Shown: in pieces, positions 4,375 through 62,122 of the stretch | How positions within the stretch are numbered: position 1 is the stretch's first letter | Layout: each line of letters starts with the position of its first letter | Assembly: GCA_900290365.1 (NCBI GenBank) | Contig: OMOE01000167.1 | Span: 6,305-70,304 of the forward strand | Origin: Syntrophobacter sp. SbD1 | GTDB lineage: Bacteria; Desulfobacterota; Syntrophobacteria; Syntrophobacterales; Syntrophobacteraceae | Direction: 5' to 3' | Length of the DNA stretch: 64,000 bases | The notes under the pieces: model-generated | Seen by the model: only the letters and a program-made list of their open reading frames with translations | Told to the model about the DNA's origin: nothing | Databases searched by the model: none | Made by a program: the position numbers and the translations under genes

Positions 4375-6897
4375 ATGAAAGTTCCTATGCGCCTTCCGTT
4401 CATCTCACACAGGCGACAGAAGCCTTCCTCCGATCAGGGGCTGGAATGGGTCCGATCCCTGTTTGCAAAATTCCAGCGTATTCAGAAATACAATACCAGG
4501 GCCTTGGAAGTAATGGCCGAAATGGACCGTGCCCTGGGCGGAGAGTACATTTTCGACCGCGCCTTCCTTGAAAGCTCCGTTCGAGAGTTGAGCGGTCTCG
4601 CATACCAGGTTGTCTACAGCCTGAACGCCATGTCGCAGAACGGATACGTCGCTCTCTACGACAGGTATCAAAGCATAAAAGGCGTTCTGGATGACATCCT
4701 TGCCGGGGGACTGGGACCTTTTGGATCGAGTCTTGCCCTGCCGTATTCAGTACTTGGCCTTGAAATGGAGCCTCTGGCGGGGGCCTTGAATGTGTGCCTG
4801 GCCGAGGCGCGAAATCGCCTGGACATTCCCGCCCCCGACGGCTTTGCGGTGACGGTGACCGGCTGCTCGCAAATGATGGCCGCAGGCGGGGGGGATTTTG
4901 ATATTTTTGCTAAACCGGCGTCGCTCGAGGTTGCTGATTTCCCCCCGGAATTGGTCGAGGCGATTAACCACCAGATGGAGTCGCTGTTTGCAAGATGCGG
5001 AGGCCCGGTTCCTCTGATCGTGAGAATCTGTCCGGCTGCCGCAAACAACCAGACCCGGACCGAGACGGTCCGGCTGCCCTCGCAGGTGTTTACCAACGTT
5101 GGCTCCGATGAACTCCTGGAAACCTGCCGAATGGCCCTGGACAAATATTTGGCTTCATCCGAAGGACCCGATCCCGCGCCGGTGGCCCTGGCGGTCCATG
5201 AGGCTGTGCCCGCCCAGGTTGCCGGCTCAATTTCTCTTGTGACTTCGCCCGATTCGCCTTCGGGAGGACTTTTTTGTATAACGGCCTGGCCGGTGGGTGC
5301 GCCTGACAGCAGGGAGACCTTTTTTCTTCGCCGGACCTACCCATTCGATCCCGTTGAATCGGAAATCAAAGCGAAACCTTACAACGAGCGGATCTACCCC
5401 GGTGTGCATCCCCTGTCGATCACGCCAAAAGGCCTCTACAGAGGTTCTGCCCTCCTTGGTCCCTCTTTTCTCAGGGGCATTGCGGCATGCGCCTCGGCTT
5501 TTGAGCGGATTGTCGGCTGCCCCCAGGATCTCGATTGGGTCAGGGGCGATGCCGCGCGGCCGGTTATAGTGAATGTGAGGGCGGCGGGCGAGCTTGACGG
5601 TTCGATGGAGAGCGATTTCGATGCGCCGTTTTCCGAAGAGGAGGATGAGGGAAATTGGGTCGAGGACGCCGAGGTGATGCTTGCCGGGGGTGAGACCGCG
5701 CAGACGGGTATAGCAGCCGGTCCGGTGGTACATGTTCGTGAAAGCGAAATGGATCTGTTCCCCCATGGCGCCGTCGCCGTTGTCAGATATGCATACCCCA
5801 GTTTGAGCGCCATCATGAGCAGGGCTTCCGCTGTAGTGACCGAAATCGGCGCCTCCATCGGGCACCTGGCCACAATAGCCAGAGAACTGCGCATACCCGC
5901 CATCTTTGGCGCCGCAGGGGCAATGCAGAGATTGCCTGAGGGGACCGAAGTCACAGTTGACGCCGGGGAAAAGAGGGTCTACCGGGGGATAGTCGAGCCT
6001 CTGTTGGCCTCCCGGGCAACCGGCACGGAACTGTATCCGAGCGATCCGGAATACGTTACACTCCGCCGCCTGCTGCGCTGGATATTGCCCCTGGAACTCA
6101 TCGATCCTGAGTCCAGTACTTTTTGTGTGGATAATTGCCGCACTTATCACGACGTTATTCATTTTTCCCACGAGAGATCCATTGAGGAACTTCTAAAGAT
6201 CCAGGAGCACGGCGCCGGGCTGAAAAGTCCGTATGTTCGCAAACTCGGGATCGATACGCCGATCGATCTGTTCGTGCTCGATATTGGCGGCGGGGTGTCC
6301 CCGGGGGCCGGGGCTTGTGTGGAATTCGATGACGTCATTTCAAAGCCGTTCCTTGCATTCCTTAATGGGCTGACCCTCAAGGAAGTCTGGAACCGGGACC
6401 CGGGATCCCTCAACCTCAGAGGAATAATCTCCGGGCTTGACCGTACGTTTTCGGCCATGATGGAACTGCCTGAATACGCCGGCAGAAATCACGCAATCCT
6501 GGCGGAAAACTACATGAACGTCGGCCTTCGGCTCGGTTATCATTACAGTGTGATCGACAGCTATCTCTGCGGCAATGTAAATCAAAATTACGTCTATTTT
6601 CGTTTCGCAGGCGGTTTTGCCGATGAGAATCACCGGCGGCGCAGGGCTGAGCTTATAAGGTCTATCCTGGACCAACTGGGCTTCAAGGTGAGAATCAAAG
6701 GCGATCTCGTTCTGGCAAAGCTCAAACTGGTGGACAACCGGGAGGTAATCTCGGCATTAAAGGTCCTGGGAGAGCTTACGGGATTTACCCGGCAGATTGA
6801 TCTTGCGATGGACTCGGAAGATAAAATTGAAGAATTCGCCAGGCTATTCAATGAAAAATCCGGCCGCGCAGGCAAAGAGGAGAAAAACGGTGTCTAG
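4375..6897 (+). CDS. PpsA/PPDK-like paralogue 2 with a degenerate ATP-grasp but an intact swivel His domain and the shared C-domain
   Basis: GASIGHLATIARELRIPAIFG (His codon 5863-5865). C-domain NYMNVGLRLGYHYSVIDSYLCGNVNQNYVYFRFAGG parallels paralogue 1. The ATP-grasp signature positions read PLIVRICPAAANNQ and CPQDLDWVRGDAARPVIVNVRAAG. Confidence 0.75.
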   Translation: MKVPMRLPFISHRRQKPSSDQGLEWVRSLFAKFQRIQKYNTRALEVMAEMDRALGGEYIFDRAFLESSVRELSGLAYQVVYSLNAMSQNGYVALYDRYQSIKGVLDDILAGGLGPFGSSLALPYSVLGLEMEPLAGALNVCLAEARNRLDIPAPDGFAVTVTGCSQMMAAGGGDFDIFAKPASLEVADFPPELVEAINHQMESLFARCGGPVPLIVRICPAAANNQTRTETVRLPSQVFTNVGSDELLETCRMALDKYLASSEGPDPAPVALAVHEAVPAQVAGSISLVTSPDSPSGGLFCITAWPVGAPDSRETFFLRRTYPFDPVESEIKAKPYNERIYPGVHPLSITPKGLYRGSALLGPSFLRGIAACASAFERIVGCPQDLDWVRGDAARPVIVNVRAAGELDGSMESDFDAPFSEEEDEGNWVEDAEVMLAGGETAQTGIAAGPVVHVRESEMDLFPHGAVAVVRYAYPSLSAIMSRASAVVTEIGASIGHLATIARELRIPAIFGAAGAMQRLPEGTEVTVDAGEKRVYRGIVEPLLASRATGTELYPSDPEYVTLRRLLRWILPLELIDPESSTFCVDNCRTYHDVIHFSHERSIEELLKIQEHGAGLKSPYVRKLGIDTPIDLFVLDIGGGVSPGAGACVEFDDVISKPFLAFLNGLTLKEVWNRDPGSLNLRGIISGLDRTFSAMMELPEYAGRNHAILAENYMNVGLRLGYHYSVIDSYLCGNVNQNYVYFRFAGGFADENHRRRRAELIRSILDQLGFKVRIKGDLVLAKLKLVDNREVISALKVLGELTGFTRQIDLAMDSEDKIEEFARLFNEKSGRAGKEEKNGV

Positions 6898-50180: not shown

Positions 50181-51437
50181 ATGTTGGATTCAACGGCGGC
50201 TGTGGACAAGATATTGGTCTGTGTGAGCGCCAGTACTTCCAGTGCGAACGTGATACGATACGCTGCAACAAAGGCCGAGGGCATGCACACCAGGTTTTTT
50301 GCGGTGCATGTGGAAACTCCTCGCGGGATGCTGCTGCCCGAAGATGAGCGCAACCGGGCTATGGACAATATGAGGCTGGCCGAGCAACTCGGGGCTGAAA
50401 CAGCTACCCTGACAGGTCGAAACATTGCCGAAGAAACGATGAGGTTCGCGCGCGAGAAGGGCATAACAAGGATAATAGCCGGAAAACCAGGACGTTCGCT
50501 ACTACGGAGTATTTTCCTGGCCAGCCCTGTGGATCGCCTGGTGCACATCAGCGGAGAAATCGACATTGAGATTGTCTCAGGTGAATCCGGGGAGGCGTTT
50601 CGCGCGCCCTATCGCATTAGGTCCCGTGAAATTCCCTGGTCGGATTATGGAACGGGCTTACTTTTTTACATGCTTGCTACGGGGCTCTGCTTCCTGATGT
50701 TCAGGCGTTTCGATCTGAGCAACCTCATAATGGTCTATTTGCTGGCTGTTATGGTGACGGCCATTGAGACCGGGCGCGGACCGGCAATTGCCATCTCTCT
50801 GCTGAGCGTGCTGTCGTTCGATTTCTTTTTTGTTCCCCCGCGTTTTTCGTTCACGGTGGATGACGCTCAGTACATAGTGACTTTCATCGTCATGTTTGCG
50901 GTCTCTTTGACTATAAGCCACCTTACGGAGCTGATGCGCAGGCAGACTCGAACGGCCCGTCTGCAAGAGAGGCAGGCAGCCGCGATGCATGGTCTGAGCC
51001 GACAGCTTGCCGGCTCCAGGAGTGTTGAAAAGATCTTGAAGATAACCGTGGAGTACATCTCGGAGATTTTCGACTCCAAAGTGATAGTCCTGTTGCCTGA
51101 CAAGGACGGCAGATTGAAGACGGGCGGTGGCGACCCTTCCCTTGTATTTCAAAAGGATGTGGTCCGGCAACTCGACGTTGCGAGCAAAGCATTCAAAACG
51201 GGGGAATCAACCGGGTGGGGAACCCAACACGAGCCGGAAAACGAAATACTCTATGCCCCGCTTCAAGTAGCGGATTTAACTCTTGGAGTTGTCGCGCTGC
51301 GGCCCGGCGATCCTGATAGGTTTCTCATGCCCGATCAGCGCTACCTGTTCGAATCGCTTGTGAAGCAGGTGGCCCTTTCACTTGAAGTTGAGTTTATGGC
51401 CGAAAGATGCATACCGTTGCAATCGGCGGTTTTCTAA
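50181..51437 (+). CDS. KdpD-like sensor fragment: USP-like + DUF4118 membrane + GAF-like domains, no histidine-kinase core
   Basis: ILVCVSASTSSANVIRYAATKAE...RIIAGKPGRS (the KdpD USP region), 3-4 TM helices, and a GAF-like tail. The ORF ends before any HisKA H-box. Confidence 0.7.
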   Translation: MLDSTAAVDKILVCVSASTSSANVIRYAATKAEGMHTRFFAVHVETPRGMLLPEDERNRAMDNMRLAEQLGAETATLTGRNIAEETMRFAREKGITRIIAGKPGRSLLRSIFLASPVDRLVHISGEIDIEIVSGESGEAFRAPYRIRSREIPWSDYGTGLLFYMLATGLCFLMFRRFDLSNLIMVYLLAVMVTAIETGRGPAIAISLLSVLSFDFFFVPPRFSFTVDDAQYIVTFIVMFAVSLTISHLTELMRRQTRTARLQERQAAAMHGLSRQLAGSRSVEKILKITVEYISEIFDSKVIVLLPDKDGRLKTGGGDPSLVFQKDVVRQLDVASKAFKTGESTGWGTQHEPENEILYAPLQVADLTLGVVALRPGDPDRFLMPDQRYLFESLVKQVALSLEVEFMAERCIPLQSAVF

Positions 51438-53296
51438 TCTTTCTTCATCGTATCGGGGCGGCAGCCAAAATAGCTGATTTCAAAGTTAAACTCAGGGAAT
51501 TTCCTGGGCAGGGTCATCAGGTTGAACACCATGACCCCGATTGCGAGTCTGTCCAGCCATGAGGACATAGGCCAGCCGAAGTGAACGGTAATATTTTTGT
51601 CAGGCAACTCATATTTGAGAATCTTGAGCAGAAGCAAAATACGCTGATATAGCTTGCCCCGCAGAAGGGGAAAACGGAAATGGTTTATCGCCATTTTTGG
51701 CGGAATGCCCTGGCGCGGTGTATAAAAGGTTATGTAAGCTTCATTTTCCTTAGGATCTTCGAGGGATTCTTCCCGGGGACGGCGGAATATTACGTGTACG
51801 TCCGGCGAGGATGATTCCGCCAGGAAGAGTATCATTTCCATCTCATTGTCGGCCTGGCCGATCTGAACGATTTCCGGCGCCCTTTTCTTTGCAAGCAGGC
51901 TTCCCGCCACGAGGACAAAAAAAGTTATCCCTCCCCACAGAGCCGTTCCATGGGGCTTGTCTATCGCCAGAAAAATGAAGCAGCTTATCAGGATTATCCA
52001 GAGAATAAGCGTGCCGATGCGGCTGGTGTAATAAGGGATTACTTCCTTGGTGCCCACAAAATAGCGGTAAATTAAAAGCGATCCCATATTTATGCAAAAA
52101 CTCGCCAGGAGCCCTATAGCGTACATATCGGCAAGAACTTGCTGAGAGCCGCTTGTAATTACGATGACGATTGAAAAGAAAATCGCATTTAGAATGTGAA
52201 TCCGGTAGAGCGAATGTCGCCGGTTCGTAGCGATCAGCCACAGGAATCCGTAGCGGTGCGCCACGCGCTCGATCAGTTCGCTTGAGGCGACGAAAGCGGT
52301 ATTAACGGCCATAATCAAAGTGATGCTGGCCAGTCCGGCAACCAGGATGCCGAATAATGTCCCGTTGAGCAATGTTGCATAATGGGTGACCAGGTCGCCT
52401 TCATGCTCGCTGAAATTGATCGGGGCGCAAAGAACCAGTCCTGCAACCAGAGGTGTCGCGATGCCCACTGTAAGCGCCAGGAAAAGATATGCCTTATGGA
52501 TCTCGCGCCAGCTCCGCACAAAACCGGCCGTCTGTATGACCGATTCGATTCCTGAATAGGCCAGGATACAAAATGCTATGTGGCTTATGAAATTGCCGTA
52601 ATCATGGAGAAGTGAGCCCGTCTCAAGCGGCTTTAACGCTTCACCGCCGGACTCTTTGAGGCGCGCCAGGGCAGAGCTGTCAAATTCGACTATCCCGGAT
52701 GCAATAAGGTTCATCATAACGAAGGCGGCCATGATGAAAATCAGGAACGTAAACCTGGCATTCTCTCTTATGCCGAGAATATTTAGTCCTGCCATTGCCC
52801 AGAGAATCCCGAGCACGAGAAAGACAACAAGGGACGGGTTCTCAGCAACATGAGGGAAAAATGAAGTCGCATTAAGAACGGCGCTCACAGCCGAAATACA
52901 CGCGGTGAGTATATAATCGACCATAATGGAAGAAACGGCCACAAAGGATATCATCGGACCAAGCACGAGGTAGGAGAAAGAATATACTCCTCCACCAATG
53001 AGACCGTTATGCTCCAGGATTTCAGCAATCTCGGTAAACCGCGTGCTCATGAACCGGATAAGAATGCTGGTAATGGCGATGAAAACTATGGCTTTCAAAC
53101 CGATGAATCTGAATGCTTCGGCAGGGACATAAAAGATGGACGTAAATTCGTCCATAAGGGTGATTATTGCAACCGCCAGCCAAGTCAGCCAAATTCGGCC
53201 CGTCTGGGAAACGGTGAGAAGATTCGGCCGTCTCATTAGGTAGACGAAGGTTACCACAAGTGACAGATTGAGGAGGAAGAGAACGATGAACTTCAT
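51434..53296 (-). CDS. APC-superfamily transporter resembling KimA (K+/H+ symporter) with a cytoplasmic C-domain
   Basis: 12 TM. GGGVYSFSYLVLGP...SSIMVDYILTACISAVSAV parallels the KimA GGGAYIVS...LLVDYILTVAVS. Preceded by a c-di-AMP riboswitch. Confidence 0.65.
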   Translation of the reverse strand: MKFIVLFLLNLSLVVTFVYLMRRPNLLTVSQTGRIWLTWLAVAIITLMDEFTSIFYVPAEAFRFIGLKAIVFIAITSILIRFMSTRFTEIAEILEHNGLIGGGVYSFSYLVLGPMISFVAVSSIMVDYILTACISAVSAVLNATSFFPHVAENPSLVVFLVLGILWAMAGLNILGIRENARFTFLIFIMAAFVMMNLIASGIVEFDSSALARLKESGGEALKPLETGSLLHDYGNFISHIAFCILAYSGIESVIQTAGFVRSWREIHKAYLFLALTVGIATPLVAGLVLCAPINFSEHEGDLVTHYATLLNGTLFGILVAGLASITLIMAVNTAFVASSELIERVAHRYGFLWLIATNRRHSLYRIHILNAIFFSIVIVITSGSQQVLADMYAIGLLASFCINMGSLLIYRYFVGTKEVIPYYTSRIGTLILWIILISCFIFLAIDKPHGTALWGGITFFVLVAGSLLAKKRAPEIVQIGQADNEMEMILFLAESSSPDVHVIFRRPREESLEDPKENEAYITFYTPRQGIPPKMAINHFRFPLLRGKLYQRILLLLKILKYELPDKNITVHFGWPMSSWLDRLAIGVMVFNLMTLPRKFPEFNFEISYFGCRPDTMKKD

Positions 53297-53474
53297 TTAG
53301 TTTCCGCTGAGCCTCGTCACAATTTTGTTTTAATTTAATATCGTGAAGCAAAATAAAACTGCTGAAGATCGCGGAAAAGCGTGGGAGGGGAGCCTTGGGC
53401 GGATTTGTACGGGAGACTCACGCCCAGTGCTAAGACGTGTACAATCTCATACATTCCGTTTAAGAAAGTACCCT

Positions 53475-53600
53475 CTTGACGCCTGCGAGGTTAGCTGACG
53501 GGCTCGGGCCAATGAGGTTGCCCTACGCCATTTGGCGATACGCCCCTTTTTTCTGGGTCCCCCGCTCCAAAGACCGGATTCGGCGATTAAAGCGTGGGCA
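53475..53600 (-). promoter_or_regulatory. c-di-AMP riboswitch (ydaO/kimA class)
   Basis: Minus strand reads ACGCTTTAATCGCCGAATCC...GGAGCGGGGGACCCAGAAAAAAGGGGCG...CCCGAGCCCGTCAGCTAACCTCGCAGGCGTC. The conserved cores AGCGGGGGACCCA and CCGA.CCCGUCAGCUAACCUCG.AGGCG are both present. Confidence 0.8.
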
Positions 53601-53628
53601 ATGTAAATCCTTGCAAAGCGCATGTCAA
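53600..53628 (-). promoter_or_regulatory. Sigma-70 promoter driving the riboswitch and transporter
   Basis: Minus strand reads TTGACA-17 nt-TACATT. The predicted +1 falls at the 5' edge of the riboswitch. Confidence 0.7.
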
Positions 53629-53802
53629 GAAAGTTAACGTGCCCCACATTTCATTTTGAAATGATTTGCAATAATTTGCATTGCGATTCAGCCTTGCCCC
53701 TGGAGAGGTCTTTTTCTTTAATTTATTGAAGTTAAAGGATATTATTGCCTGCTCCGGATGCGGGGCATTAGATTGCCTGATACTCCGGCACCGGCCGGGA
53801 GG

Positions 53803-55623
53803 ATGACTATGAGATTGAGGACAAAACTTATTCTGGCATTCAGCGGGCCGCTCGCCATTCTGATCATTCTCGGCCTGATCAGCGCTCGAACGATCACGAA
53901 GTCCAGCCACACGGTGGAGAGGATTTTCCGTGAAAACTACGACAGCGCCGACGCATGCCTTAAGATGAAAGACGCCATCCTAGTGATGGATGGAACGGCG
54001 GAGATATTTGTTTGGGACGGTGTGAAGGACGAAAAAACAATTGCCGCCGATCTGGAGTTTGTAAATCACCTCCGGTTCCAGCAGGGCAACGTAACGCTTC
54101 CGGGCGAGCAGGATTTGACCGATTCTCTAACAAATCAATGGAACACGTATCGGGTGGCGTTAGAGAAGTTTTTCACCCTATCCTCAGAAGGAACGGACCG
54201 GAGGCAGTTTTATCGAAACAGCATCCTGCCGCAGTCCCAGCGCGTTTTGGACATTGCGCAGCGAATTATCGACATAAACCTCAACAACATGGTTTCCACA
54301 GACGGGCAGGTACGCAAGGAGGCGGCGGAAACCAACCGCACCCTGCTGCTCCTTGTGCTCTCAGGCATCCTGCTCTCGGCGCTCTTCGTTGGAATATTCT
54401 GGCAATCCATGGTGAGGCCTATTTCCAGGCTTATGGATTCCGTACAGGAGATCCAACGCGGAAACCTCGACTTCTTTGTCCATGTGCATTCGAAGGATGA
54501 AATAGGAAACCTGGCCTCCGCATTCAATGAAATGACTTCAACCCTTCGCCGGTTCAGAAAAATGAACCGGACAAAGCTCCTGCGTTCTCAAAGGGCGACC
54601 ATTTCGGTGCTGAACGCTCTTCCACAGGCAATCGCCGTTTGCAATCCAGGCGGTGGGATCGAACTTTCAAACGAGGCCGCGGTGAAGATGTTCGCCCTTG
54701 CTCCCGGGAAATCTATTAAGGACGCAGCAGATGAAAAGATAGTCGAACTGTTCTCACAGGCGAACCTGGAAATGCGGCCGTTTTGCAACAAGGGATGGGA
54801 TTGGGCAATCCAGAAGTTTTCGGACGGCGATGAAAAGTTTTTCCTGCCCGAAGCAATTCCGATATTCGATGATGAGCATGGACTGATCGGCGTTACCATG
54901 GTCATCTCCGACGTTACCAGGCTGCGGCAGCTCGATGAGGCAAAAAATGGCCTGATTTCGACCGTTTCACACGAGCTCAAGACCCCCTTGACTTCCATCA
55001 GGCTAGCAACGCATGCCTTGCTCAATGAAAAACTGGGAGTCCTGAACCCCAAGCAGACGGAACTTGTCTTGGCCGCCCGCGAGGAAAGCGATCGGCTGCA
55101 CAGGATCATCGAGAATTTGCTCGAACTTGGCAGGATGGAATCCGGTGGAGCCAGGCTCGATCTTATGCCGATCAGTGCGGAGGAAATCCTGCTGGCAGCC
55201 GCAGATGAAATGAGGACTGCCTTTGCCGACAGGGGCGTATCACTTTCCCTCGAATTGCCGGCCGATTCACCCCGGGTACTTGCCGACAGGCTCAGGCTGG
55301 GAATTGTATTCGCAAACCTGCTTAACAACGCGCTCAAGCACACCCCTCCCGGAGGCCGGGTTACGCTCTCCGGGCGCGAAGAAGGCGGCGAAGTGCTCTT
55401 TTCCGTCGAAGATACCGGTGAGGGAATACCCCAGGAGAATTTGCCCCACATTTTTGAAAAATTCTTTCGAGTGCCGGGATGTGAAGAGTATGGGACCTCG
55501 GGATTGGGACTGGCCATAGTGAAAGAGATTACCGAGGGTCATGGAAGCAATATCAAAGTGAACAGCAGTCCCGGAAAAGGCGCCAGGTTCGAATTCGCGC
55601 TCAGCAAGGCTGAATCGGTTTGA
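53803..55623 (+). CDS. Sensor histidine kinase (periplasmic/4-helix sensor, HAMP, PAS-like, HisKA, HATPase_c)
   Basis: H-box STVSHELKTPLTSI, N-box LLNNALKHT, G1 VEDTGEGIP, G2 GTSGLGLAIV. Confidence 0.9.
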   Translation: MTMRLRTKLILAFSGPLAILIILGLISARTITKSSHTVERIFRENYDSADACLKMKDAILVMDGTAEIFVWDGVKDEKTIAADLEFVNHLRFQQGNVTLPGEQDLTDSLTNQWNTYRVALEKFFTLSSEGTDRRQFYRNSILPQSQRVLDIAQRIIDINLNNMVSTDGQVRKEAAETNRTLLLLVLSGILLSALFVGIFWQSMVRPISRLMDSVQEIQRGNLDFFVHVHSKDEIGNLASAFNEMTSTLRRFRKMNRTKLLRSQRATISVLNALPQAIAVCNPGGGIELSNEAAVKMFALAPGKSIKDAADEKIVELFSQANLEMRPFCNKGWDWAIQKFSDGDEKFFLPEAIPIFDDEHGLIGVTMVISDVTRLRQLDEAKNGLISTVSHELKTPLTSIRLATHALLNEKLGVLNPKQTELVLAAREESDRLHRIIENLLELGRMESGGARLDLMPISAEEILLAAADEMRTAFADRGVSLSLELPADSPRVLADRLRLGIVFANLLNNALKHTPPGGRVTLSGREEGGEVLFSVEDTGEGIPQENLPHIFEKFFRVPGCEEYGTSGLGLAIVKEITEGHGSNIKVNSSPGKGARFEFALSKAESV

Positions 55624-60598: not shown

Positions 60599-62122
60599 AT
60601 GGCACAGGGAGAAATGAAAAAGACACTGGGGCTGACCGGTGTCACGGTGAATGCAATGGCGTTGATTGCGCCGGGGGCATTTTTATGGTTGACCTACCAG
60701 GTGCAGGCCTCGCAGGTGGATTTGGCCGGCAACACTACTGCGATGGATATGTTTGCCGGACTTTTTGTCGCATTGATTCTGGCATTCCTGACCGCAGTTT
60801 CCTATTCCAAGCTCGCGGAACTCTATCCGGATGCCGGGACGGGCAGTTCATACTACTTTACCGAACAGGCCTTGCTGGGGGAGGACAAGCTGTCGCCTTT
60901 CGCCAGGTTGTCCAAGTTTGTGGTGGGCTGGTTCTCGCATCTTTACTACTGGGTATACCCGGGCGTAATGGTAGCAATGATGGCTACGCTCATAGTCTAT
61001 ATTTTCCAGCAGTTCGGTATCGATCTCTCCGCTTTCTGGCAGATTGTGGTCGCGGTATTATTCGCATTCATGGTCGGATACATAGCTTTTCGCGGGATCA
61101 CCGGGTCAACCGTATCCAGTGTGGTGATCAATGTTATCCAGATCATTGCTTTGCTGGTAGTAACGATTCTGGCGCTGGTTTACCGTTTTACCAACCCCGA
61201 GCATGTTGAGTTCGTTCACTCGACACTCTCCTCGATTGTAATGCCTCACAGTTTCTCAAACGTGATGTTCCAGGCTACTGTGGCAATATTGCTGCTGGTT
61301 GGTTTCGAATCGGCCACGGCCCTTACGGCAGAAGCCAAGTCGCACAAGCACGTAAGCCGAGGGGTCATGATCTCGCTGGTTATCCAGGGACTCTTAATGT
61401 ACCTTTTCGAATACTTCGGGGCCAATGCCTGGATTAACACGGCTTATACCGGGAAAGACGCCAAGGGCGCAGTGGTCACCGGCCTTGACGCCGCAGCCGC
61501 CTCCAGCGCTCCGCTTGGAGACATGGTGCAAAACCTTGGCAATGCTCTTCTGGGCAACATGGGCTTCGTCCTGATGATTACGGTCGCGATTACGGTGGCT
61601 ATCGCCGTAATAGGCACCACTTTGGCCTGTTATAACACCGGGGTGCGCGTTACCTACGCAATGTCGAAGGATAAGGAAATGCCGAGCTTCCTCGGGTTTT
61701 TGCATCCCAAACACGCGACGCCGCATGCAGGCATACTGGCGATGACCATTGCCTCGGCAGTGATCGGTGCGTTCGGGGTCCTTTCGGTCGTAAACCTGAC
61801 CGCCATAACCTTCTGGTCCAATATCGGCACCTTCGTTCTCTACGGGATGACAAATGTGATAGCGCTGGTGGCGTTTTTGCGGCATCCGCAGCGAAATGCG
61901 TTCACGCACATAGTGGTTCCCGTTCTCGGCACTTTTGCCAACATCGCCATGCTGGTCGCGGTGCTCTACCTGGGAATCCTTGGCGGCGGCGATACCCAGA
62001 CCGCTGCTATGTACTCGATCATAGCCACCGGGGTATGGCTTGTGATTGGCGTTGTTTACCTGTTTGTACAAAGCTCCCGTACCCGCAGGAAAATAATTGG
62101 AGTACCTGTTGAAACCCATTAA
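60599..62122 (+). CDS. APC-family amino acid/polyamine permease, apparently nitrogen-regulated
   Basis: 12 TM; NAMALIAPGAF and FESATALTAEAK motifs; GAGGAAGG RBS. Confidence 0.85.
   Translation: MAQGEMKKTLGLTGVTVNAMALIAPGAFLWLTYQVQASQVDLAGNTTAMDMFAGLFVALILAFLTAVSYSKLAELYPDAGTGSSYYFTEQALLGEDKLSPFARLSKFVVGWFSHLYYWVYPGVMVAMMATLIVYIFQQFGIDLSAFWQIVVAVLFAFMVGYIAFRGITGSTVSSVVINVIQIIALLVVTILALVYRFTNPEHVEFVHSTLSSIVMPHSFSNVMFQATVAILLLVGFESATALTAEAKSHKHVSRGVMISLVIQGLLMYLFEYFGANAWINTAYTGKDAKGAVVTGLDAAAASSAPLGDMVQNLGNALLGNMGFVLMITVAITVAIAVIGTTLACYNTGVRVTYAMSKDKEMPSFLGFLHPKHATPHAGILAMTIASAVIGAFGVLSVVNLTAITFWSNIGTFVLYGMTNVIALVAFLRHPQRNAFTHIVVPVLGTFANIAMLVAVLYLGILGGGDTQTAAMYSIIATGVWLVIGVVYLFVQSSRTRRKIIGVPVETH

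Follow-up and report, generated by a model that had tools for sequence, protein, structure and literature searches.

A c-di-AMP riboswitch upstream of a KimA-related transporter gene in Syntrophobacter sp. SbD1, with a predicted role in the control of K+ uptake

Organization of the locus

In the window (the whole 64-kb stretch of Syntrophobacter sp. SbD1 DNA that was analyzed), a gene for a membrane transporter on the minus strand is preceded by a predicted sigma-70-type promoter, a complete riboswitch aptamer and a long leader. The promoter, the aptamer with the two strands of its pseudoknot, and the gene are located as follows.

53623-53628, minus strand: -35 hexamer TTGACA (promoter scan and conservation)
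53600-53605, minus strand: -10 hexamer TACATT, separated from the -35 hexamer by a 17-nt spacer (promoter scan and conservation)
53466-53595, minus strand: full-length c-di-AMP riboswitch aptamer, RF00379 (cmscan)
53510-53519, minus strand: 5′ strand of the pseudoknot, the loop AACCUCAUUG of the second-half hairpin (position from the Rfam alignment)
53471-53478, minus strand: 3′ strand of the pseudoknot, the purine tail CAAGAGGG, which resembles a Shine-Dalgarno (SD) sequence (loop-tail duplex comparison)
51434-53296, minus strand: 620-aa KimA-related transporter of the APC/KUP type, P0001 (Pfam, sequence and fold)

The aptamer and its promoter

The Rfam scan (cmscan) matched RF00379 to positions 53466-53595 (-) with 102.1 bits against a gathering score of 38 (E = 3.9e-23), and the alignment covers model positions 1-134 of 134 without truncation. 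This is the sole Rfam match at the gathering threshold within the 64-kb window and the single copy of the c-di-AMP riboswitch in the entire genome. The original prediction, made from the sequence alone, was a c-di-AMP riboswitch of the ydaO type, transcribed from a promoter of its own, and an Infernal search with RF00379 had been suggested as a check; the significance of the match and the retention of the promoter in orthologous loci bear this prediction out. Judged by its sequence, the RNA at 53466-53595 (-) is a genuine c-di-AMP riboswitch that comprises both pseudo-symmetric halves and the pseudoknot. High-affinity binding of two c-di-AMP molecules is a trait of this class, and the aptamer at 53595-53466 almost certainly binds the same ligand.

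The boundaries of the aptamer had to be revised. The aptamer string that had been quoted originally occurs exactly once on the minus strand, as 118 nt at 53478-53595, with its 5′ end given 2 nt off, at 53597; its 3′ boundary, 53478, is 7-12 nt too early and cuts off the pseudoknot tail. The identity of the pseudoknot was deduced from the crystallized T. tengcongensis construct quoted in PMC5393176: the loop CCUC(A)UUG pairs with the tail CAAGAGG, and the second-half hairpin that presents this loop is closed by the pairing of 53523-53520 with 53509-53506. A single bracket string for the pseudoknot on the 47-sequence alignment was abandoned because the loop register had been moved between lineages by MAFFT, and the duplex of each loop with its own tail was therefore compared with the duplexes that it forms with the tails of other lineages. 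The own duplex is the better one in 33 of the 38 distinct combinations, that is, the pseudoknot covaries. Since the tail is part of the aptamer, the leader proper is ~170-174 nt long, slightly shorter than the 180 nt described originally.

The putative promoter TTGACA-17-TACATT at 53628-53600 (-) scores 10 of 12 matches in the promoter scan. Of the 14 orthologous loci with an aptamer, 13 keep its pattern, TTGAC(A/G)-17-TAnnnT, at a fixed distance of 11-14 nt upstream of the 5′ strand of P1, and transcription is predicted to start at approximately 53595-53592 (-).

c-di-AMP signaling and distribution of the riboswitch

The presence of c-di-AMP signaling in this organism, which had been postulated together with a search for the corresponding cyclases and phosphodiesterases, agrees with the gene content of the genome, which encodes two diadenylate cyclases (a DAC-only protein and a DACND-DACNH-DAC protein) and one PgpH-type 7TMR-HD phosphodiesterase of the HD type. 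The aptamer is kept upstream of 13 of the 15 orthologs of the transporter gene in the genus, and the same riboswitch accompanies about 60 of the 80 members of the transporter family, in several phyla. Across the genus, the riboswitch is present in 29 of 39 genomes, nearly always as a single copy; in those genomes of the genus in which searches did not recover the KimA-related gene, the riboswitch precedes Kup (two genomes) or TrkH-TrkA/KtrBA (two genomes).

The transporter is a distant relative of KimA

P0001 consists of about 12 TM helices followed by an alpha/beta C-terminal domain of ~140 aa. AA_permease_2 is its only Pfam match, no NCBIfam model matches it, and the databases label it an amino acid transporter and its family 'amino acid permease'. 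This name is uninformative because AA_permease_2 is also the only Pfam match of KimA itself. Among 177,635 distinct sequences of solved structures, KimA is the sole match to P0001 (E = 1.2e-6 with the single sequence and 1.5e-9 with the family profile), hhalign against KimA yields a probability of 95.5%, and a pairwise comparison of P0001 with KimA of B. subtilis gives 26% identity across 324 aa (E = 2.6e-9). The family profile assigns 39.5 bits to KimA and 0 bits or less to all other APC and Kup proteins that were scored, including the other APC paralogs of the genome, with -4.9 bits for the genome's Kup. The fold points in the same direction: with the structure model of P0001 (pLDDT 76.6), the top three Foldseek matches are KimA structures, aligned over ~624 columns, that is, at full length (E = 8e-13), against ~1e-8 over ~445 columns for generic amino-acid APC transporters.

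Three more specific assignments of P0001 were considered and rejected. It is not the ortholog of KimA, given its 26% identity against 39% over 431 aa (E = 1e-84) for a 630-aa protein encoded elsewhere in the same genome, on contig C180; the gene of this KimA ortholog has no riboswitch. The earlier description of P0001 as a KimA-like transporter of the APC superfamily accordingly holds in the sense that KimA is its closest characterized relative and does not extend to orthology. Neither is P0001 a canonical Kup/HAK/KT protein, considering the absence of a K_trans (PF02705) match and the -4.9 bits of Kup; its TM1 reads LMDEFTSIFY, compared with the canonical (V/I)(F/Y)GD motif. A closer affinity to amino-acid transporters was dismissed as sequence searches reach none of the amino-acid APC chains of the PDB at E = 0.01.

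The KimA residues D117, T121, S125, T230, E233 and Y377 have been assigned to the K+ site, the gate and H+ coupling (PMC6994465). They align to D127, T131, S135, S248, E251 and Y392 of P0001, all of which are invariant in 41 homologs; five are identical to those of KimA, and T230 is replaced by the invariant Ser (S248). In TM1 of KimA, D36 is essential for K+ binding and Y43 forms the outer gate. P0001 has an invariant D49 and an invariant Y56 with the same D-x6-Y spacing, which map onto D36/Y43 only in a non-significant global alignment (z = 0.3), and TM1 of KimA is not reached by phmmer, hmmsearch or hhalign, the alignments of which all begin at KimA residue 90.

Taken together, P0001 is a distant relative of KimA that belongs to a separate family and is predicted to be a K+/H+ symporter. 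The role in K+ uptake that had been proposed originally is plausible and gains from the invariance of the site residues; it is further backed by the riboswitch in about 60 of the 80 family members and by the placement of the same RNA in front of Kup and KtrBA in sister species. On these grounds, K+ is probably the substrate.

It is rather improbable that the riboswitch, although real, controls an importer of an amino acid, a polyamine or a compatible solute, all of which are known cargo classes of c-di-AMP-regulated transporters. Such a function could be read from the only Pfam match, AA_permease_2, with no NCBIfam match and a database name of amino acid transporter, and from the identity of just 26% to KimA in a genome that already encodes other K+ systems, namely Kdp, Kup and the KimA ortholog; amino-acid transporters also occur among ydaO-associated genes (PMC7266159). 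However, the family name carries no weight where KimA matches nothing else, KimA reaches E = 0.01 by sequence and no amino-acid APC transporter of the PDB does, the residues at the positions of the KimA K+/H+ site are invariant, and the same riboswitch stands before the K+ systems Kup or KtrBA in sister species. We therefore retain K+ as the probable cargo of P0001 in what follows.

The leader and its C-rich box

Between the aptamer and the start codon, the following features were identified.

53400-53458, minus strand: stable leader hairpin (MFE -22.1 kcal/mol, z = -2.84 against shuffles)
53368-53390, minus strand: conserved C-rich box CCCCUCCCACGCUUUUCCGCGAU (RNAalifold consensus pairing)
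53390-53383, minus strand: CCCCUCCC, part of the C-rich box
53336-53416, minus strand: stretch with C in excess of G, a candidate rut (Rho-loading) region (composition)
53297-53315, minus strand: translation-initiation region (alignment of orthologs)

The leader had been called unusually long, which it is not among its relatives, as leaders of 160-365 nt are normal for the gene family in Thermodesulfobacteriota. The failure to recognize a convincing terminator or anti-RBS, in turn, was reproduced: a scan of three leaders, that of the window and those of two sister loci, predicted no intrinsic terminator, and the modeled accessibility of the ribosome-binding site (RBS) is 0.36 in one state and 0.37 in the other, being unchanged in most orthologs as well. 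The leader hairpin (53458-53400) shows compensatory changes in its inner stem among orthologs (alignment pairs 57:77 and 59:75) and is not followed by a U-tract, and a permissive Rfam scan of the leader returned no second known RNA element. The initiation region contains an invariant GAGG (53315-53312), a weak SD-like GGAAA (53305-53301) and an in-frame TAA right before the ATG. A leader peptide translated from the SD-like tail was rejected for the window since no ATG, GTG or TTG follows the tail, and a 39-codon leader ORF read by eye farther downstream was rejected since a 1-nt deletion disrupts it in a 99%-identical relative.

The C-rich box is complementary to the 3′ strands of P1 and the outer helix and to the pseudoknot tail, and lies ~95 nt downstream of these. 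In the RNAalifold consensus it pairs with UCGC-AGGCG-...-GGG, and in 10 of the 10 closest orthologs the tail of the pseudoknot is predicted to pair with it. According to the models, the box is unpaired with a probability of 0.39 when the aptamer strand is free and of 0.91 when the aptamer is closed. Compared with shuffles, the duplex between box and aptamer strand attains a modest mean z of -1.35, a score that is biased because the box was picked as the best partner of the tail, and the box-aptamer pairs show no covariation because both sides are nearly invariant. The sister group of the genus retains no more of this pairing than its GGG(GG):CCC(CC) portion. We also considered whether the box had accompanied the aptamer to its positions before Kup and KtrBA in the genus, and rejected this because the alignment scores for those leaders are at background level. 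On balance, we lean slightly towards the modeled pairing of the C-rich box with the aptamer strand.

The box is embedded in the stretch with an excess of C over G (53416-53336), the best 80-nt segment of which contains 29 C and 11 G and ranks in the top 0.5% of the 80-nt segments of the window (P = 0.037 against random stretches of equal length). C exceeds G in 48 of the 48 long leaders of the family, with a per-locus median P of ~0.09, which is modestly unusual. Rho is encoded in the genome.

Proposed switching mechanism and its alternatives

We propose that the sigma-70-type promoter (53628-53600, -) would give rise to an mRNA that starts with the complete aptamer and continues through the ~170-nt leader into the single transporter gene. 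High c-di-AMP would serve as a signal of K+ sufficiency, with two ligand molecules locking P1 together with the pairing of the pseudoknot loop (53519-53510) to its tail (53478-53471), whereas at low c-di-AMP the 3′ strands of the aptamer and the tail would pair instead with the C-rich box at 53390-53368. Closure of the aptamer would thereby free the C-rich, G-poor leader at 53416-53336 as single-stranded RNA, on which Rho could load, such that transcription would stop before the gene or early inside it. The OFF logic of the switch is very probable by analogy: all characterized c-di-AMP riboswitches are, to our knowledge, OFF switches. For the output step, Rho is preferred because there is no intrinsic terminator and the accessibility of the RBS does not change; Rho-dependent attenuation is a best guess, held tentatively and somewhat short of even confidence, and against it stands the fact that closure of the aptamer frees only ~20 nt, less than Rho normally needs. 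The account in its entirety (promoter, aptamer, OFF switch on a K+ importer and Rho-dependent output) appears to us evenly poised between right and wrong.

Translational control with the same OFF logic seems unlikely, although several observations speak for it. Here, the freed box (for example, UUUCCGC at 53376-53370) would prevent ribosome binding by pairing with the first codons or with GCGGAAA (53307-53301), located just before the start codon, and the 3′ strand of the open aptamer would capture the box and free the start. UUUCCGC does pair with GCGGAAA, at the position of the SD, in the MFE structure of the window, and the UCGC:GCGA pairing of the RNAalifold consensus would preclude this helix. 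Moreover, the pseudoknot tail is itself the SD of the transporter gene in four family members, which suggests that translational control is ancestral in the family, and translational control has been proposed for the terminator-less c-di-AMP riboswitches of Corynebacterium (PMC9960051). Nevertheless, for the window as for most orthologs, the two modeled states do not differ in RBS accessibility, and the pairing registers found by eye vary between species. Across 21 orthologs, shuffling of the start region leaves its duplexes with the box about as stable (mean z = -0.15; a single one of the 21 falls below -1.64), so the pairing of box and start, seen in the window as UUUCCGC:GCGGAAA and in locus L103 as GCGAUGAGC:GCUCAUCGU, was rejected as a general mechanism.

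A non-canonical intrinsic terminator, with the box segment CCCACGC and the following UUUUCC (53384-53373) as the 3′ strand and U-tract and with a 5′ arm far upstream (the leader hairpin's GGGCGUG or else the aptamer strand), is very improbable: a run of four U does directly follow a segment able to pair with upstream G-rich segments, and the B. subtilis kimA leader uses an intrinsic terminator (PMC9960051, PMC5575661), but the scan was empty for the leaders of the window and two sister loci, the U-tract comprises just 4 U, the loops of the candidate stems span 29-90 nt, the box is 91% unpaired in the aptamer-closed model, and the aptamer strand as the 5′ arm would invert the logic to an ON switch, unfit for a K+ importer. 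Rho-dependent attenuation hence stays our tentative choice for the output of the window's riboswitch.

Leader ORFs in sister lineages

In other members of the family, the pseudoknot tail serves as the RBS either for the transporter gene or for an upstream ORF, and a start codon follows the tail after 1-7 nt in four loci (L071, L080, L081 and L092). Loci of the Desulfobaccales type encompass a conserved leader ORF of 57 codons that ends with PESHSP, and the loci of Spirochaetia, Dadabacteria and Ignavibacteriales carry a leader ORF of ~23 codons with the motif xSLIS. These observations are compatible with an expression platform that has not been described before for this class, an idea that we consider doubtful albeit worth stating. 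In Thermodesulfobacteriota and neighboring phyla, the tail would act as an SD that drives translation of the leader ORF across the C-rich leader; ligand binding would abolish leader translation and thus expose the transcript to Rho-dependent polarity. The window would then represent a decayed version of this platform, in which the leader ORF is gone and the closure of the aptamer directly exposes the C-rich Rho-loading site.

Significance

The riboswitch class and its tie to K+ uptake are already known, and because both are textbook knowledge, the chief value of the present analysis lies in annotation. It yields a predicted function, c-di-AMP-repressed K+/H+ uptake, for a large family that goes by the name 'amino acid permease' and has no NCBIfam model, and that is widespread among uncultured Thermodesulfobacteriota with a sulfate-reducing or syntrophic lifestyle as well as in several further phyla. 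The locus further points to c-di-AMP/K+ signaling via RNA in a Gram-negative lineage, and the genus presents a case of one riboswitch reassigned among three different K+ uptake systems. Finally, the long terminator-less leader and the leader ORFs of the sister lineages make it possible to test whether this class includes an expression platform coupled to Rho or to translation.

Comparison with known systems

The closest known counterpart is the leader of B. subtilis kimA (ydaO), which belongs to the same RF00379 class, has the same pseudo-symmetric halves and pseudoknot, and likewise forms the 5′ leader of a single APC/KUP-type transporter gene; repression at high c-di-AMP is expected here too. 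The differences concern the output, the target and the host: the kimA switch ends in an intrinsic terminator (PMC9960051), whereas none was found in the leader of the window; the kimA riboswitch controls KimA, whereas that of the window controls a 26%-identical relative; and the host here, unlike B. subtilis, is an uncultured, Gram-negative member of Syntrophobacteraceae. At the protein level, the modeled fold of P0001 resembles KimA (PDB 6S3K, 8B70 and 8B71) in combining a LeuT-fold membrane domain with a cytoplasmic C-terminal domain, and differs from it in having an additional helix at the N-terminus (residues 2-21) and a diverged region, TM1-TM2, that is out of reach of profile alignments.

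The riboswitches of Corynebacterium glutamicum nlpC and Streptomyces coelicolor rpfA share with the present one the lack of a canonical terminator downstream of the aptamer, and alternative pairings of the CUCC/GGAG type have been proposed for such terminator-less actinobacterial c-di-AMP riboswitches (PMC9960051). These actinobacterial switches, however, control genes of cell-wall hydrolases and not a transporter gene, the leader of the window is far longer and C-rich in comparison with theirs, and the S. coelicolor rpfA case has been reported to be Rho-independent.

We know of no c-di-AMP riboswitch that works via Rho. Outside this class, Rho-dependent attenuation was reportedly described by Hollands et al. 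in 2012 for the Mg2+ leader of Salmonella mgtA and the FMN riboswitch of E. coli ribB. With these two systems, the locus of Syntrophobacter sp. SbD1 has in common a long untranslated leader without an intrinsic terminator in a Gram-negative host and, as a proposal in the present case, the ligand-dependent exposure of a C-rich Rho site.

Riboswitch aptamer and promoter

The ydaO-type c-di-AMP riboswitch described in the original prediction was confirmed as an observation, while the interpretation attached to it was partly supported. RF00379, the c-di-AMP riboswitch family, is the sole Rfam match at gathering thresholds in the whole 64-kb window, spanning the full model (positions 1-134 of 134) with 102.1 bits against a cut-off of 38 (E = 3.9e-23). 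The element is almost certainly a genuine c-di-AMP riboswitch and very probably acts as an OFF switch. A string search of the window located the 118-nt sequence quoted in the prediction exactly once, at 53478-53595 on the minus strand; the end placed at 53597 is thus off by 2 nt. The proposed sigma-70-type promoter was recovered, and in sister species the pattern TTGAC(A/G)-17-TAnnnT holds a fixed position 11-14 nt 5' of the P1 strand at 13 of 14 orthologous loci with an aptamer.

Features of the riboswitch locus
53628-53600, minus strand: promoter-like TTGACA-17-TACATT (consensus scan, 10/12 matches)
53595-53466, minus strand: RF00379 aptamer
53519-53510, minus strand: second-half hairpin loop AACCUCAUUG, pseudoknot 5' strand, equivalent of the Thermoanaerobacter construct loop
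53478-53471, minus strand: purine-rich tail CAAGAGGG, pseudoknot 3' strand, equivalent of the Thermoanaerobacter construct 3' end
53296-51434, minus strand: 620-aa transporter ORF, first ORF 3' of the riboswitch on the same strand, with an in-frame TAA directly 5' of the ATG

In the crystallised Thermoanaerobacter construct, the second-half hairpin loop CUCCUUCG is complementary to the purine-rich 3' end CGAAGGAG, which constitutes the pseudoknot of the class (PMC5393176). The corresponding strands change together across the collected aptamers (UUG:CAA in the window, UCG:CGA in the sister species, CUUCCAA:UUGGAAG in the homologous locus L048 and UUCUCC:GGAGA in L089 and L090), and in 33 of 38 distinct combinations a loop forms a more stable duplex with its own tail than with a tail from another lineage (mean difference 1.6 kcal/mol). 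Since loop and tail covary as a pseudoknot, the aptamer does not end at 53478, as had been assumed, and extends to about 53471 (53466 according to Rfam). The leader is indeed long, and the earlier figure of about 180 nt becomes about 170-174 nt once the tail is counted in the aptamer.

A gene for a HAMP-PAS-HisKA-HATPase histidine kinase (53758-55623, plus strand) is divergent from the riboswitch promoter. About 10 close relatives keep this divergent arrangement, and two promoters are therefore probable within the 460-nt intergenic region. On the other side, a Usp-DUF4118-GAF ORF (50181-51437, plus strand), which resembles the sensor KdpD without its N-terminal domain or kinase core, is convergent with the transporter gene, the stop codons overlapping by 4 nt; 16 of 80 family loci have a homolog of this ORF in linkage with the transporter gene, either convergent downstream or on the same strand upstream.

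Transporter family

The only Pfam match of the 620-aa transporter is AA_permease_2 (93 bits), and NCBIfam yielded no match. Because KimA of B. subtilis also matches AA_permease_2 alone (141 bits), this name is uninformative on the substrate. A search of 177,635 distinct solved-structure sequences gave KimA as the sole match, both with the single transporter sequence (E = 1.2e-6) and with a profile of 41 family members (E = 1.5e-9); the PDB includes many amino-acid APC transporters, and none of them reached E = 0.01 with either query. The hhalign comparison of the family with KimA gave 95.5% probability. In the AlphaFold2 model (pLDDT 76.6, pTM 0.68), a helix at the N-terminus precedes a helical membrane domain, and an alpha/beta domain that begins near residue 485 forms the C-terminal part. 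For this model, Foldseek ranks the KimA structures 8B70, 8B71 and 6S3K as the three best PDB matches (about 624 columns, E = 8e-13 to 6e-10), followed by generic amino-acid APC transporters (about 1e-8) aligned over the membrane domain only, about 445 columns.

The K+ site and gate of KimA consist of D36, Y43, T121, S125, T230 and Y377, with E233 coupling the proton and D117 binding K+ in the exit tunnel (PMC6994465). In HMMER alignments, KimA D117, T121, S125, T230, E233 and Y377 lie opposite transporter D127, T131, S135, S248, E251 and Y392, all invariant among 41 homologs in an alignment reaching down to 56% identity. D49 and Y56 are also invariant among homologs, with the D-x6-Y spacing of KimA, and may be the counterparts of D36 and Y43, onto which they map only in a non-significant global alignment (z = 0.3).

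The genome contains four AA_permease_2 genes. One of them, on another contig (C180:19988-21181, minus strand, without a riboswitch), encodes a 630-aa protein that shares 39% identity with KimA of B. subtilis across 431 residues (E = 1e-84) and represents the true KimA ortholog. The riboswitch-controlled transporter shares 26% identity with KimA over 324 residues (E = 2.6e-9), which rules it out as the ortholog, and barely matches the C180 protein (E = 0.004-0.11). The family profile scores 39.5 bits with KimA and 66.6 bits with a 600-aa homolog from a neighbouring family of the order, and 0 bits or below with the other APC paralogs and two Kup proteins; grouping with amino-acid permeases, the outcome that would speak against the prediction, was not seen. 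Judged by these identities and scores, the transporter is assigned to a distinct, uncharacterised family with KimA as its nearest characterised relative, so "KimA-like" holds in the sense of kinship, not identity.

At the positions of KimA T121, S125 and Y377, the C180 ortholog has N, G and F, respectively. A second APC permease gene in the window (about 60626-62035, plus strand; 507 aa, AA_permease_2) is unrelated to the family (-9.8 bits with its profile).

Comparative evidence for a probable role in K+ uptake

The MAGs that carry close homologs of the transporter are labelled Syntrophobacteraceae, delta proteobacterium or Thermodesulfobacteriota. An aptamer profile search of species-representative genomes detected a same-strand c-di-AMP aptamer upstream in about 60 of 80 family loci, which belong to MAGs labelled Syntrophobacteraceae, Desulfobaccales, Desulfarculales, Spirochaetia, Dadabacteria and Ignavibacteriales. 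Within the genus of the window, RF00379 is present in 29 of 39 genomes, nearly always as a single copy, and gene and aptamer are adjacent in all 13 genomes where both were found. In four genomes where the KimA-related gene was not found, the single riboswitch lies 5' of a canonical Kup (K_trans + K_trans_C; G024 and G013) or of a TrkH-TrkA/KtrBA pair (G007 and G020), so that one regulator alternates among three K+ uptake systems within the genus. This swapping is the best indirect evidence for K+ uptake by the KimA-related transporter, given that the genomes are related and the independent events few. Together with KimA as nearest relative and the invariant residues at the KimA site positions, it supports the proposed role, and the protein is likely a K+ importer.

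The leaders of the Kup and KtrBA/TrkH-TrkA loci (L108-L111) are again long, about 100 to 450 nt. In two genomes (G012 and G006; loci L007 and L009), the transporter gene is kept and the aptamer has been lost through rearrangement with a kdpD-like fragment: the proximal leader has given way to sequence resembling one gene's end and an N-terminal piece of KdpD (…KVYLGYGPG.GKT…), and the distal leader is retained from the C-rich box onward. From sequence, this looks like natural loss of riboswitch control.

The genome of the window (4.67 Mb, 182 contigs, 92% complete) holds exactly one RF00379 copy and encodes two diadenylate cyclases (a 212-aa DAC-only and a 513-aa DACND-DACNH-DAC protein), a PgpH-type 838-aa 7TMR-HDED/7TM-7TMR_HD/HD protein, Rho, KdpA and a canonical Kup; TrkH was not found, its absence being unproven at 92% completeness. 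With the cyclases, the PgpH-type protein and the riboswitch, the organism is predicted to be able to make, degrade and sense c-di-AMP, as had been proposed.

Leader and candidate output mechanisms

Features of the leader
53458-53400, minus strand: sole significantly stable hairpin (-22.1 kcal/mol, z = -2.84)
53416-53336, minus strand: C>G-biased stretch, candidate Rho-loading site (best 80-nt window 29 C, 11 G)
53390-53368, minus strand: conserved C-rich box CCCCUCCCACGCUUUUCCGCGAU, most conserved part of an otherwise fast-evolving leader (ortholog alignment)

A permissive Rfam scan revealed no second RNA element in the leader. The inner stem of the hairpin shows compensatory changes among orthologs, and the sequence 3' of it, AAAUCCGCCC, has no U-tract. 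RNAalifold, applied to ten orthologous leaders, pairs the box with the aptamer 3' strands (UCGC:GCGA, AGGCG:CGCCU and tail GGG:CCC); these pairs are near-invariant, hence without covariation. Two folding proxies were used per ortholog: aptamer 3' strands plus leader for the ligand-free state and leader alone for the closed aptamer. The box is the predicted partner of the tail in 10 of 10 close orthologs, and in the window its unpaired probability rises from 0.39 in the ligand-free to 0.91 in the closed-aptamer proxy. Compared with dinucleotide shuffles, the duplex of aptamer strand and box exceeds chance moderately (mean z of -1.35, with 8 of 21 below -1.64), values biased by the choice of the box as the best partner of the tail.

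Closure of the aptamer by the ligand would expose the box as a Rho-loading site. The C>G-biased stretch ranks within the top 0.5% when every 80-nt segment of either strand of the 64-kb window is compared, a random leader-length stretch equals its bias with P = 0.037, and C exceeds G in all 48 family leaders of at least 120 nt, the per-locus bias being modest (median P about 0.09) and the loci not independent. Given the lack of a terminator, the unchanged accessibility of the ribosome-binding site, the exposure of the box and the presence of Rho, a Rho-dependent output ranks first, tentatively, although the freed segment is short. A translational relay is rather unlikely: the modelled ribosome-binding region is equally accessible in both proxies (0.36 and 0.37), in keeping with the failure of the original prediction to discern an anti-RBS, and the box forms no better duplexes with the start region than expected by chance (mean z = -0.15, 1 of 21 below -1.64), so that by-eye pairings between it and the SD region or first codons are unsupported as a conserved mechanism. 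Non-canonical intrinsic termination is improbable, as the terminator scan found nothing between aptamer and ATG in the window and two sister loci, which agrees with the prediction.

Leader classes and upstream ORFs

Distance from aptamer to transporter start across the family
1-16 nt: L071, L080, L081, L092; the tail (GGAGGA or GAGGGGG) serves as SD of the transporter itself
82-90 nt: Spirochaetia, Dadabacteria and Ignavibacteriales loci
160-190 nt: genus of the window
250-365 nt: Desulfobaccales-type loci

Long leaders are therefore typical of the family, and that of the window is not, as had been stated, unusually long. In the shortest class, where tail and SD coincide, ligand binding must hide the SD directly. 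In the Desulfobaccales-type loci, the tail AGGAGGAGGA is followed by an ATG opening a 57-codon ORF, exactly so in 8 of 10 loci examined; the ORF ends P-E-S-H-S-P-stop and spans a very C-rich stretch (up to 36 C and 8 G per 80 nt). Its third codon positions vary more than the first and second (0.44 vs 0.35 and 0.35), which fits translation, and it may be a riboswitch-controlled leader peptide. These ORFs (L053, L055, L056, L057, L059, L064, L065, L068, L069 and L070; 56 codons in L064) start 4-5 nt past the SD-like tail and are proline-rich, with the pattern M......AP.AH…P.PESH.P-stop. A second type of about 21-24 codons, read by eye in L089, L090, L094, L097 and L099 (labelled Dadabacteria, Spirochaetia and Ignavibacteriales), starts right after the tail and ends near the transporter start (MKYSFFDSLIS…, MKYDLFDSLIS…, MKHNPVSSLIS…). 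In the genus of the window such ORFs are sporadic and not conserved, and in the window itself no start codon follows the SD-like tail, which rules out a leader peptide there; its long leader may descend from riboswitch control over leader-ORF translation. Two loci carry a second c-di-AMP aptamer just 3' of the transporter gene (L048, about 5319-5440; L065, about 4884-5009), presumably controlling the next gene.

Comparison with known systems

The ydaO/c-di-AMP class is already well characterised: published work links it to K+ transporters, to amino-acid-type transporters and to genes for the cell wall and osmotic stress (PMC7266159), and experiments have established kimA and ktrAB of B. subtilis and kdpFABC of B. 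thuringiensis as targets (PMC5575661, PMC6488665). Diadenylate cyclases are known in Deltaproteobacteria (PMC5575661), and a translational mechanism has been proposed for terminator-less members of the class in Actinobacteria (PMC9960051). Novelty is limited to three points: this particular KimA-related transporter family with its predicted function, the reassignment of the riboswitch among K+ systems inside one genus, and a possible involvement of Rho or of leader-ORF translation in the expression platform.
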